From Fibrobacteria bacterium (GTDB lineage Bacteria > Fibrobacterota > Fibrobacteria > UBA11236): DNA of 6,465 bases. Each line of letters begins with the position of its first letter. Within the stretch, counting starts at the first letter, position 1. The stretch lies in contig JAYTHY010000011.1 of the NCBI GenBank assembly GCA_043732185.1, positions 1 through 6,465 on the forward strand. Reading direction: 5' to 3'. Positions 1 through 3,000 of the stretch are shown in pieces. A program made the position numbers.

Positions 1-3000
1 CAGAAAATTCGCACGTTGCTATACCTGACCGAATCAGGAAAGGGATAAGAGCGTGGGATTTTCGAGGCTAATTATGGTAGTAGAGTGCGAGAGGAAACAT
101 TATCCAAAGGGCTGACAATCTTCGAAACATTGTTGGTGGCAACATGGGTATACCGTTCTGTAGTTTTTGAACTGCTATGACCTAATAAGGCCTGGATAAA
201 CCTTAAATCGGTACCATTTTCTAAAAGGTGAGTCGCAAAAGAATGGCGGAGGCTATGGATGCCACCAAATTTGACCATTCCGGCCTTTTTACAGGCATTT
301 TCGAATACCATCTGAAATGCGCGTCTTGTTAAAGCTTTACCCGATAGCGGAGATTCAAAGACAAAGGTTTTTGGCCCAAAGTGGTCGAGGTAGTCTTTGA
401 TGGGCTTTCGCAAAATTTCCGGAAATAGGACTACCCTATCCTTTCCGCCTTTTCCATTCCGGATTTTAATAACGCTTCGATTGTAATCAATATCGCAGAT
501 TTTTAATGCAGCCAGTTCGCTAACCCTTAGTCCAGATCCATAGGCCAGGGAAAGGGCTAATTTGTGTTTTGGATTTTTGATTTCCCCAATAACCTTTTCA
601 ATGCTCTTTGCATCCAATACCACCGGTAATTTTGCGTTTTCTTTCAGGCGGGGGATTGTATCCAATCGAATTGCGGATTTGACAACATTCCGGCAGAAAA
701 AGGATAGGCCATCTCGATACAGATTGACTGTAGCGGCATTCAAGCCTCTGTCTTGCTTTAAGGAGAGAAGAAACGATCGCAGCTCGGTGATTTTCCATAG
801 GTGGGGAGAGCCGGGATGAACTTTAATAAAGCATCTTACAGCATTGTCATAATTATTAAAGGTTTCCTTGGAATAATTTCTGGCTGCTATTTCCGCTCGT
901 AAGCGCGCTGACCAAAAGCTTAACCAATCCTTGGGTTTGGAATCGGCAGGTACTGCGTTCGATCGCGGTTGAATCAGATTTTGTGACATTGGATATCCAT
1001 TCAATTTGAAATTTGAATGGACAATTTACTCTGGGACGAATTATGGACTATGACACCGGTCACTCTTCGACTGAATACTTCCGGATTGATTAGAAAAAGC
1101 GCCACTTACGATCGCAGTGATGCGGCTCCGAATGCCCTGCCGCACGACCCAGCCGCCCCAAGCTTAAAGGAGTTTTGGGTTTCAGTCGAGCCACCTGCCG
1201 GACTCCCCGGGGATGTCCTGCCATGGCGGCAAATTGCCCATAGGTGGCAGCTTTACCTTTGGGTATGCCGCGAATAAGGGAAACCATTGGCGATTTGAAT
1301 TCTTGTCTTGAAGAGGAAAATCCAGGCCTGTTTTTACGGGCCCTTCAAGATGTAATCAGAGCCATTTCCGGGTGAATCAATCCGGCATCCAGATTAGGCG
1401 GCCTTCTTTTTTTGATACTTAGGGCCAAGTGTCACGATTCGATTCCGTAATTTTTTGCGAATAGCATCAATTTGTTTTTCAAATTTTTCGGGATTGGTTT
1501 TGATTACTTTGTCGATTTTCTTGGTCAATTTGATTCCTGCAGCACATGAGGTGCGACCCCTTGATTATCGCCCCCAATCTTTTACCACCGACAACTTGCA
1601 CGTGGCCTATACGATTGTCCCCGGCTGGGCGCTAAACTTGTCTCACTATCACCCACAACGGATGCCATCGCAAAGACAATTAAGGAGAGAGATGATACCC
1701 GACTCCAACCTTCATGGGCCCACGCGGCAAATATCTTGGGCTTGTCCACGCAGCTACCAATCCGAACTGTTTTCTTAACTGATGGGCTTGATAAGAAAGT
1801 AGTGATAGGGAATCGGCAAATTATATTGCGACGCAGTCTTTCAAAAGGTGATAAGCGGCAAACCTGGTCAAACCGGATTTTGCAGATAAGCAATTGGAAA
1901 TACAAATGCACTCTAATTTGGTGGAAAACAGTAGTTAGATGAGTTCTTTTGAATAACTGTACCTATTTAGGTACATCGGAGGTATAATGAAAAATTTGAA
2001 AAAGACTTGTGGGAAGTTCGATCAAATATTAAAGATGGAATTGCGGGAGGTTTTATGATCAACAAAACTAAGCGAAGTAATTTTGACAACTTCCTTGAAG
2101 AAGAGGGGCTTTTGGCCGAGGCGGAAGCGGTTGCGGCTAAGAGGGTATTAGCCCACCAATTTCAATCTGCCAGGAAAAAAAGGCGCATGACCAAATTGTC
2201 GATGGCGAAAAGGATGAAAACAAGCCGGACAGCCTTGGATAGACTTCTTGATCCAAAAAATTCCTCTGTGACACTTCAAACGCTAGAACGTGCGGCTGTA
2301 GTCTTGGGAAAGAAACTGAAAATCAGTTTGGTATATTGATCTGACAACCCACATAAAATTGAGTGCCCGTGCACCGTGCAGCTAAGCGCCTTCGTGCGGC
2401 CTAGGCCTCTACCGAGTCCTTTAGAAAAAGTCCGGATCCGGAATTGTGCAGCAAACAAGCCGAAATCATCCCCGTCAGCGCCAATGTCACTTTCGCATGG
2501 CACGAAGATAGTCGTGCAGGATCTCTTCTAAAGGGATAACTGAAATGCGGTCATAGGAATGATAAATATATGGCCTAATAGGTCGAGTCCAATTGCAGAT
2601 CTTGTAATCTCGGATGCTATAAGTTTCATAGAATTTCTTGTAGGCTTTTCCATTGGGGACGCCGACCGAACGGCGCACAAAGCGATTGGCCGCAGCTTTT
2701 TCCATCTTAAGACGCTTTGTCCCATATCCATCAGTGGTAATGGGCTTTCGATAGGAACGACTCATGTTTTAGTCCTTGGTTAAGGTGACTAAAACACGGC
2801 TCCTTTTCGACCGGTCCACGGCCTTCGGCAAGGGGATTGGTTGGCTTTGGACATGCGCTAAATATACTGCAATTTATTTGGAAAAAGAACAATTAACTTA
2901 ATCGTGGTAAAACCTCGCCGTTTACGGGCAGCGATAACCCGTCGATGACTCAATCAGGAACAAAGCTTCATTTACTCCGGCATCATTGTAGCGTTTCGCC

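Follow-up and report, generated by a model that had tools for sequence, protein, structure and literature searches.

The window analysed here, a stretch of 6,465 nucleotides that makes up an entire contig (G000:C11) of the source Fibrobacteria genome, G000, encodes a tyrosine recombinase that is related to the integron integrase IntI but does not carry the IntI-specific insert. Judging from its sequence and from the surroundings of its relatives, we consider it reasonably probable, though far from certain, that this gene belongs to an insert-less family that provides the recombinase at the head of the arrays of an integron-like platform. The following features were assigned in the window:

72..1004, minus strand: tyrosine recombinase gene P0001, an ORF of 310 aa when read from a TTG codon
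675..905, minus strand: N-terminal core-binding domain of the SAM_4 type, aa 34-110 (PF13495, E 1.6e-11)
135..617, minus strand: catalytic domain, aa 130-290 (PF00589, E 2.1e-38)
324..392, minus strand: short linker, aa 205-227, where IntI has its specific insert (I2 helix region), supported by the gap in the TIGR02249 match
100..1082, no strand assigned: block common to the closest orthologues, consisting of the gene and 78 nt upstream, delimited by sequence identity
1..99, no strand assigned: end (99 bases) of a multi-copy element whose insertion point falls within codon 302, recognized by identity among contig ends

An ATG at codon 6 (nt 989) coincides with the start of the orthologue from G002 and, on sequence grounds, is likely to be the true start codon. 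A motif search located the catalytic residues at R160, K188, H250, R253, H276 and Y285; the window protein thus possesses the full R-K-H-R-H-Y set of tyrosine recombinases, all members of which are invariant or nearly so across the 46 homologues compared, and we infer that the protein would be capable of catalysis. Comparison with two orthologues yielded dN/dS values of 0.20-0.25; apart from its inserted tail, the gene is undamaged and evolves under purifying selection. In the AlphaFold model the core-binding domain is composed of four helices (pLDDT >90), while the top solved match of the catalytic domain, both by sequence and by fold (TM 0.72), is VchIntIA (2a3v).

The additional domain specific to IntI (~35 residues near patch III, containing the I2 helix) is absent from the window protein. 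In a sequence alignment, residues 205-227 of the query face residues 180-244 of 2a3v, and the corresponding region of the AlphaFold model contains one helix (196-209) and short strands, with no extra helix. The distance between the GKGxKxR and HxxRH motifs is 59 residues in the window protein and 58-59 in all 20 insert-less homologues carrying both motifs, versus 98-100 in 13 of 13 IntIs (and 63 in one housekeeping Xer), so that the net deficit relative to IntI amounts to ~41 residues. The initial annotation had described an IntI-like recombinase lacking the insert, which our analysis bears out, but had attributed the difference to a single 31-residue gap; this figure does not hold, as the BLASTP alignment with the canonical IntI of G000 itself (C132:898-1830) contains 50 gap columns that are scattered along its length. 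Identity in that alignment is 31%, close to the 30% given previously for the IntI core. The two TIGR02249 matches, reported as 113 and 84 bits, were likewise recovered at the DNA level (113.2 bits for model positions 4-178 and 83.8 bits for 237-314) and leave model positions 179-236 unmatched; the total score of the recombinase, 198.6 bits, is below the curated cut-off of 265, while the canonical IntI of G000 scores 375.5 bits. In quick trees, which do not settle the deep branching order, the 25 IntIs group as a clade (SH-aLRT 99) to which the window recombinase does not belong; it is nevertheless found in the same bush as IntI, apart from the two housekeeping Xer genes of G000 (SH-aLRT 98-99). 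The array-side recombinases do not constitute one clade in these trees, as had already been observed.

Sequences with at least 44% identity to the recombinase were found at 17 places, and 15 of these orthologous loci, in relatives, could be assessed; related loci in the counts that follow are not independent samples. Giant attC sites were located with an nhmmer profile built for them, and a constrained-fold scan, which yields false hits inside genes, was applied to gene-adjacent hairpins only. An earlier attC finder, based on AAC...GTT and the duplex energy of the arms, was too strict and, when relaxed, too noisy, and was replaced. A giant attC lies 0.8-3.2 kb downstream of the gene, on the same strand, in eight of the 15 loci, and a cassette junction or hairpin follows the gene on the same strand in five more. 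On this larger set, 13 of 15 loci thus show array signal downstream and the remaining two (G014:C68 and G006:C114) show none, where the initial annotation had placed all six of its orthologous loci at the edge of a giant-attC array. The companion claim, that giant attCs are confined to one side, was confirmed: none was detected upstream of the gene in the nine loci with 8 kb or more of upstream sequence. The polarity is illustrated by G009:C85, where ten giant attCs, all on the strand of the gene, extend over 20 kb from 1.2 kb behind it and none occurs in the 28 kb before it. The nearly complete relative said to harbour arrays but no canonical IntI is G016 (99% complete, no match above the cut-off in the sequence searched, from which 1113 bases were withheld); its giant attCs are restricted to contigs C4 and C9, each adjoining an insert-less recombinase gene.

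The attC sites within the arrays are of the RYYYAAC...GTTRRRY type, many of them being 250-290 nt long. The cassettes seen carry mostly toxin-antitoxin and anti-phage genes. An Rfam search of the window (E <= 1) returned nothing relevant, and that of eight related loci retrieved a single tRNA at gathering score, the DUF1874 motif of Weinberg 2017 remaining unmatched; accordingly, the giant attCs correspond to no RNA family listed there.

The orthologues read towards the array, and a hairpin or site ending in ...AG|TT separates the gene from the first cassette in 12 of the 15 loci (...TAGTT in ten, ...GAGTT in two). This site is positioned ~20-130 nt past the stop codon or after one toxin-antitoxin module, such a module separating gene and hairpin in G008, G002, G015 and G010. 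The hairpins behind the gene are short and near-perfect, with folding z-scores of -5.9 to -7.2, and the first cassette begins directly after the G|TT of the site. It is exactly at this site that homology between genomes breaks: similarity between G008 and G002 ends immediately after GGGGTAGTT, and that between G018 and G021 stops between GGGAGTT and the following G, while the sequence past the site is a cassette start common to the arrays of other genomes. The pattern CACARGKSGTAGTT is not enriched genome-wide, with 14 hits versus 15 for a reversed control across the 41 genomes; only its position is informative.

A comparable arrangement was encountered among Flavobacteriales homologues (37-43% identity). 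These head attC-like arrays in all four loci with ~7 kb or more of downstream sequence, and a hairpin with GTT is found behind the stop codon in 11 of 13 loci. Four loci share ...CCAATTGTT and a fifth has ...TTCAATTGTT, after which the sequences proceed with five different continuations. None of the five array-bearing Flavobacteriales genomes, for which completeness is unstated, contains an IntI match above the cut-off, and such platforms without IntI are present in cultured strains of Aequorivita, Tenacibaculum and Oceanihabitans. No repeats of at least 40 nt were detected downstream of the Gammaproteobacteria homologue L110 or at locus L117. The combination of a compact recombinase at the array head, hairpin-bounded AAC/GTT cassettes and a gene-side G|TT occurs in the orthologues and in the Flavobacteriales homologues, while the window's own copy displays only the protein part of it.

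As noted initially, the contig ends 71 bases past the stop codon of the window gene. Bases 1-99 are identical to the end of G000:C33 and to the start of C105, all three sequences parting after ...GGAAACA, and the same 99-base end is found at contig ends in G002 and G005. It supplies the last nine codons (NVSSRTLLP) and the stop of the gene. In run X1, a 2,967-nt contig with a depth of 52 ends in these 99 bases, the contig of the gene having a depth of 11.5; in other runs the gene possesses an uninterrupted, G008-like tail. Together, these observations show that an element of at least ~3 kb has inserted at codon 302, exchanging the last eight codons of the orthologues for nine of its own. The gene would thereby be cut off from site and array, leaving the platform broken here. 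The insertion of this multi-copy element at codon 302 is the reason why no array is seen at the window gene; three scans detected no attC in the window. In a search for the other end of the element, no inverted-repeat partner was found in G000, and the relatives contain contig-end copies only. Neither the G008-type tail nor the toxin-antitoxin cassette is present in the G000 assembly.

Other readings of the link between gene and array have to be considered. Canonical IntI might recombine the attCs in trans, the insert-less enzyme being a conserved neighbour at the array edge with another task (such as keeping the array stable, resolving it or flipping a segment) and the hairpin being simply the first attC. 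Of the 41 genomes, 21 possess a canonical IntI, namely G000 and 20 of the 40 relatives, and three of the 15 IntI loci fetched (G008:C262, G002:C7 and G006:C17) adjoin giant attCs of this very family; all movement of cassettes in the Fibrobacteria could thus be due to IntI acting in trans. Moreover, at G007:C119 the hairpin is found at the contig end with no such recombinase gene within 6.8 kb upstream, and published statements on the necessity of the IntI insert (Messier and Roy 2001, as cited elsewhere; Cury et al. 2016, PMC4889954) point the same way. However, G016 and all five array-bearing Flavobacteriales genomes lack an IntI above the cut-off, the gene is always at the head of the array and never inside or behind it, and the gene-side site occurs once and forms a sequence class apart (...TAGTT, versus ...ACGTT inside the arrays); we therefore regard this explanation as unlikely, albeit the likeliest of the alternatives. 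The fixed head position also bears on the idea that the recombinase gene is itself a cassette, that is, an ORF with its own attC that comes first by chance. In G003, G009, G001 and G010 an attC-like hairpin whose core reads AAC...GTT does come after the gene, or after the gene and one small ORF, but no cassette boundary (attC or G|TT) was found upstream of the gene, the gene occupies an inner position in none of the 13 loci with array signal, and the right arm of the hairpin is kept across genera, unlike in ordinary attCs. This makes such an origin very improbable.

The upstream side of the gene raises a further possibility, namely that the enzyme moves the whole gene and array, or an upstream element, between chromosomal sites rather than single cassettes. 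Left flanks vary among genera (PolB, SbcC/MksE, cyclase and PLP enzymes), but the array remains linked to the gene. Flanks on both sides of the shared block vary even among G000, G008 and G002, whose recombinases are 88-95% identical: window positions 100-1082 share 96.4% identity with G008:C101, and positions 103-1064 share 89.4% with G002:C243, homology ending 60-78 nt upstream of the start codon. The upstream flank of G008 is found on another contig of G000 (C101:101-1481), and a paralogue, G002:C367, is located beside ArdC, SSB and RadC genes, which are typical of transferable elements. Nevertheless, neither a direct repeat of an attachment site nor a second end was found, the upstream breakpoints have no shared core, the informative junctions are downstream of the gene, at G|TT, and partial synteny with G002 returns a few kb away; an island integrase consequently appears quite improbable to us. 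Least credible of all is that the gene is an ordinary extra Xer paralogue devoid of any functional tie to arrays, with a neighbourhood inherited by descent. Public sources do label its homologues XerD, and its score approaches the cut-off of one model (XerA_Arch, 196.2 bits vs 220). Even so, it falls below all Xer equivalog cut-offs (163.8 vs 335 for XerC and 144.9 vs 330 for XerD), and its distribution is not that of a housekeeping gene, 21 of the 41 genomes, and 13 among the 29 high-quality ones, containing a match at E <= 1e-30; two further Xer-like genes of G000, on C59 and C1, have no giant attC nearby, and the array link persists across different flanks and two phyla.

A head-of-array recombinase lacking the insert can be placed with respect to several known systems. 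With IntI (VchIntIA 2a3v, TIGR02249) the window protein shares the SAM_4 core-binding and catalytic domains, the RKHRHY residues and a C-terminal SPLD motif, and its orthologues, like IntI, are found beside an array of attC-bounded cassettes and an insertion site whose crossover falls at G|TT. Unlike IntI, it is without ~41 residues at the insert, below the family cut-off and outside the IntI clade; in addition, the insert-less gene reads towards the array, and its site, often a near-perfect hairpin, is past the 3' end of the gene. Integrons with gene and cassettes on one strand do exist, Treponema denticola being an example. Such a group is mentioned by Cury et al. 2016 (PMC4889954); there too the insertion site is downstream of the gene, but those integrases carry the IntI insert. 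Since no IntI is adjacent, the arrays described here would be called CALINs under the standard definition (attC clusters lacking an integron integrase); unlike CALINs, they have at their head a recombinase related to IntI and a site, both of them conserved. A passage of the same study (PMC4889954) counts 50 of 18,808 non-IntI recombinases near attC sites and judges them not to be IntI. The compact two-domain build without an I2-like element is that of XerA, XerC and XerD. There is a precedent, too, for an Xer enzyme of this kind using a folded, duplex-mimicking single-stranded hairpin as its substrate, in that CTX phage integrates in dependence on XerCD, as discussed by Escudero et al. 2016 (PMC4792948). 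Unlike Xer, however, the window recombinase is below the equivalog cut-offs, is not universal in the group and is tied by position to cassette arrays, and apparently not to dif, for which no search was made. Finally, an 'Integron-like' subgroup of simple tyrosine recombinases has been delineated (Smyshlyaev et al. 2021, PMC8138268), for the insert-less members of which no array context or function is reported in the available part of that paper. Our literature searches turned up no account of cassette arrays with an insert-less recombinase at their head.

The initial annotation had put the gene forward as a candidate non-IntI integrase for these arrays. On comparative sequence evidence, the array link, the head-of-array place and the existence of arrays without canonical IntI are now more strongly supported than they were, and it is the cassette-moving role that we infer. 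In the proposed mechanism, the recombinase would bind the site behind its gene, the counterpart of attI, and would recombine this attI-like site with the attC of a cassette at G|TT; folded or duplex-like sites would be handled as Xer-type enzymes handle hairpin sites, and not via an I2 helix. A bolder version, which we put forward only tentatively and consider rather doubtful, is that the insert-less enzymes are true cassette integrases whose attI, hairpin or duplex-like, immediately follows the recombinase gene, and that they represent the state before IntI gained the I2 helix, with both enzymes coexisting in Fibrobacteria and drawing on one pool of giant-attC cassettes.

The IntI-specific insert has served both to define integrons and to search for them, and arrays lacking an integrase that carries it have been filed as orphan clusters. 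If compact insert-less relatives do run cassette platforms, integron-type capture would be far wider than surveys now indicate, reaching Fibrobacteria and Flavobacteriales. Standard finders usually limit attC size to ~200 nt; with giant sites of the length found here, such platforms would be missed by them. A 'chicken-and-egg' question, whether attC sites or the I2 domain came first, is raised in a passage of Escudero et al. 2016 (PMC4792948); it would become testable, because there are cultured Flavobacteriales platforms without IntI and because Fibrobacteria carry both enzymes along with the same sites. Their coexistence in Fibrobacteria would then be informative, as a natural experiment, about the contribution of the I2 helix.

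P0001, the tyrosine recombinase of the window, is a sound member of a family of IntI-related, insert-less recombinases (lacking the IntI-specific segment in the I2 helix region) that heads cassette arrays with its own junction site. Its gene and domains are:

72..1004, minus strand: tyrosine recombinase P0001, ORF of 310 codons with a TTG start
residues 34-110, minus strand: SAM_4 core-binding domain (domain search)
residues 130-290, minus strand: phage-integrase catalytic domain (domain search)

The window makes up contig C11 of the source genome G000 in full (6,465 bases), and the public names of near-identical proteins fit an uncultured Fibrobacteria bacterium. 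The ATG at codon 6 is aligned with the start of the orthologue in a relative's genome, G002. All six catalytic residues (R160, K188, H250, R253, H276 and Y285) are present and are invariant or nearly so across 46 homologues, and the dN/dS of the gene is 0.25 against the G008 orthologue and 0.20 against that of G002. P0001 scores 198.6 bits against the integron integrase model TIGR02249, below its cut-off of 265; on the window DNA the match splits in two, model 4-178 scoring 113.2 bits and model 237-314 scoring 83.8 bits, which leaves positions 179-236 without a counterpart in P0001, exactly as the initial annotation had it (113 and 84 bits, below cut-off, 179-236 unmatched). The 30% identity to the IntI core given there agrees with the 31% found against the IntI proper of the source genome G000 (contig C132, 375.5 bits with TIGR02249). 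The single 31-residue gap, however, was underestimated: the spacing from GKGxKxR to HxxRH is 58-59 residues in 20/20 insert-less homologues in which both motifs were found, against 98-100 in 13/13 IntIs (and 63 in one housekeeping Xer), a deficit of about 41 residues for P0001. The closest solved structure is VchIntIA (2a3v), matched over two stretches, with 2a3v 180-244 standing opposite query residues 205-227. The AlphaFold model of P0001 (pLDDT 88.8, pTM 0.74) passes from the beta-hairpin to the HxxR helix with no additional helix, and Foldseek ranks 2a3v first (E 1.7e-16, TM 0.72), followed by archaeal XerA.

In quick maximum-likelihood trees (LG+G4, SH-aLRT support only) of 71 and 81 proteins, which exclude one fragment of 194 aa (G012), the 25 IntIs form a single clade (support 99) and the two housekeeping Xer genes of G000 separate from the rest (98-99). 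The insert-less proteins make up several clades in one bush with IntI, whose branching order is unresolved; the caveat already raised, that array-side recombinases are not one clade, therefore stands. P0001 lies in a 21-row clade (support 90) together with Fibrobacteria array-heading genes having co-directional arrays. Genes with the divergent layout fall outside this clade, one of them grouping with Patescibacteria proteins. P0001 is not a recent IntI that dropped its insert.

The homologue search found 28 places, spread over 21 of 41 genomes, and the 17 places whose identity was 44% or higher were taken. Two of these, the window itself and G004 (contig ending inside the gene), were not assessable, leaving 15 loci.

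Surroundings of the recombinase gene at 15 orthologous loci (giant attC, 250-290 nt site)
Giant attC 0.8-3.2 kb downstream, same strand (8/15): G010, G016:C4, G001, G009, G002:C367, G018, G021, G012
Only a cassette junction or hairpin downstream, same strand, before the contig end or larger genes (5/15): G008, G002:C243, G015, G003, G019
Neither giant attC nor junction downstream (2/15): G014:C68, G006:C114

Where the initial annotation had a giant attC at six of six orthologous loci, this larger set has 13/15 with either a giant attC (8) or a junction (5). That no array lies on the far side is borne out: at nine loci the upstream sequence extends for 8 kb or more, and none of them has a giant attC there. 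The more distant homologues G016:C9 (42%) and G007:C583 (36%) have their giant attCs on the opposite side and strand, in the classical divergent layout. Contig G009:C85 carries ten giant attCs; they share the strand of the gene and span 20 kb from 1.2 kb behind it, with none within 28 kb before it. Nothing was found within 1.5 kb of nine other distant homologues, nor of the housekeeping Xer loci of G000. Upstream neighbours vary by genus (PolB, SbcC/MksE, cyclase, PLP enzymes), while the link between gene and array is kept. A family-B DNA polymerase gene (790-919 aa; fetched loci L041 5345-7987, L049 5533-8292 and L040 9600-11972) immediately precedes the recombinase gene in G010 and G004; in G003 it lies 5.7 kb away. 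On the upstream side of the G006:C114 orthologue (L045), a repeat of about 155 nt starting with GTTGGGCGAAAGG (1939-2094, 2871-2936 and 3533-3689) stands between toxin-antitoxin pairs and matches neither the giant-attC profile nor Rfam.

The arrays themselves are genuine integron-type arrays. Sites downstream of the orthologues start with RYYYAAC and end with GTTRRRY, some measuring 32-55 nt and many 250-290 nt with a conserved interior, and a profile made from them detects copies with E-values as low as 1e-66. The cassette boundary is G|TT, with one cassette start found behind different attCs in G016, G008 and G000:C35, and the ORFs between sites are chiefly toxin-antitoxin and defence genes. 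Across genera, the interior of the giant attC is conserved (G000:C35 4140-4470 and 5100-5480; L042, L044). At these same loci, two cassette-start types recur and cassette ends pair beyond the R boxes too (TGTGTGGGGGCAA...GCATGCAAC with GTTGCATGCAATTGCCCCCACACA), so that a cassette in circular form would have a still longer site.

Between gene and first cassette, 12/15 loci possess a site ending in ...TAGTT (10 loci) or ...GAGTT (2). This AG|TT site lies about 20-130 nt from the conserved SPLD motif in G003, G016:C4, G019, G009, G001, G012, G018 and G021, and beyond one toxin-antitoxin module in G008, G002, G015 and G010. Five loci (G003, G010, G015, G009 and G001) have it as the 3' arm of an almost perfect hairpin whose core is AAC...GTT; folding z values between -5.9 and -7.2 were obtained for the hairpins of G003, G010 and G007:C119. 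G003, G010 and G016, from two genera, share an identical right arm, CACA(C)AAGTGGTAGTT, which occurs once per genome, adjoining the gene. Homology between G008 and G002 stops exactly at the end of GGGGTAGTT, and that between G018 and G021 at GGGAGTT|G. By comparison of these loci, the site is attI-like: a fixed left half, G|TT, then variable content. The pattern is not enriched genome-wide (14 matches versus 15 for the reversed control), so its location alone carries weight. Counting against the link between gene and site, the same conserved hairpin, ...CACAAGTGGTAGTTG, lies at the end of G007:C119 (L103, 6750-6794); the gene before it encodes a response regulator, and the 6.8 kb upstream contain no gene for an insert-less recombinase.

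In the G000 strain, a mobile element has severed the gene from its array. The 99 bases that open the window (1-99) recur unchanged where G000:C33 ends and where C105 starts, all three contigs parting right after ...GGAAACA; homology with the G008 orthologue begins at base 100, placing the junction within codon 302, and P0001 ends in NVSSRTLLP in place of the KLGGYNRE of G008. The 99-base end recurs at contig ends in G002 and G005. Sequencing run X1, possibly of the source sample, contains a 2,967-nt contig of depth 52 terminating in these bases, versus depth 11.5 for the contig with the recombinase gene, and in runs X3 and X5 the gene continues into a G008-like tail without the element. The shared end, the depth and the uninterrupted copies together indicate a multi-copy element, at least about 3 kb long, inserted at the gene's 3' end in this strain. 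No partner in inverted repeat was found for bases 1-99, nor did they match Rfam or any family. The contig break is caused by this element and not by an attC, none of which was found in the window by three scans.

Elsewhere in the window, a DNA-binding domain of Ogt/MGMT type survives as a 65-aa remnant (matching positions 8-47 of 81) at 1090-1287 (minus strand); G002:C243 has the full 101-aa copy, some 2.3 kb upstream of its own recombinase gene, with the intervening region rearranged. Short patches at 2407-2606, 3045-3128 and 4111-4237 are 84-96% identical to G008:C101 and to the SSB/RadC/ArdC region of G002:C367, amid otherwise unrelated sequence with many small ORFs, a mosaic that possibly represents the remains of a transferable element. 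The last 97 bases (6369-6465) overlap the end of G000:C133 (reverse strand), into which the Laminin_G_3 gene (5156-6463) therefore runs on; synteny with G002:C243 picks up about 1-2 kb into C133.

Which enzyme moves the cassettes? Canonical IntI, acting in trans, could serve all Fibrobacteria arrays, being present in 21/41 genomes and adjoining the same family of giant attCs, in the classical divergent arrangement, at 3/15 fetched IntI loci (G008:C262, G002:C7, G006:C17). As the whole story it is nevertheless unlikely. G016, 99% complete in 50 contigs with 1,113 bases withheld, has no match over the IntI cut-off, confirming that a nearly complete relative has arrays and no canonical IntI; the IntI model matches its two insert-less genes best, and giant attCs occur there only on the two contigs carrying these genes. 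A P0001 scan of species-representative genomes further yielded 12 Bacteroidota loci (37-43% identity). At least three attC-like sites (about 150-200 nt) follow the gene on its strand at 4/4 loci whose downstream sequence extends for about 7 kb or more (Tenacibaculum, Oceanihabitans and two Aequorivita, per record titles); on the upstream side, taken as a control, three of the four lack such sites and the other shows two R'-like ones. At 11/13 loci examined, the stop codon is followed by a small hairpin and, behind it, a GTT, with ...TATCCAATTGTT common to four loci and ...TATTCAATTGTT in a fifth, before five different continuations. IntI over the cut-off was found in 0/5 tested Bacteroidota genomes with such loci, whose completeness is not given, which also speaks against IntI in trans as the sole explanation.

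The best reading, towards which we lean, is that P0001 itself is the cassette integrase. Its array-heading family and own junction site fit its initial proposal as a candidate non-IntI integrase; that it catalyzes cassette movement is what we infer. It is improbable that P0001 is an island integrase, very improbable that the recombinase gene is itself a cassette, and scarcely credible that it is an unrelated Xer paralogue.

Cury et al. (2016, PMC4889954) define IntI by the insert and judge other recombinases beside attC sites (50/18,808) not to be IntI, and the same insert-based definition is used for archaeal integrons (Ghaly et al. 2022). Smyshlyaev et al. (2021, PMC8138268) describe an 'integron-like' subgroup in which the insertion is incompletely conserved, and an unusually structured attC has been suspected for another motif (Weinberg et al. 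2017). Escudero et al. (2016, PMC4792948) pose as an open question how either the I2 domain or attC sites could have evolved in the absence of the other, naming XerCD on the CTX phage hairpin as nearest analogue. We found no description of arrays headed by an insert-less recombinase in the literature searched. Such platforms are present in cultured Flavobacteriales strains, per titles Tenacibaculum agarivorans HZ1, Oceanihabitans sediminis S9-10, Aequorivita viscosa and Aequorivita sinensis (loci of cultured strains: L107, L113, L114, L116 and L118), which would permit bench tests.
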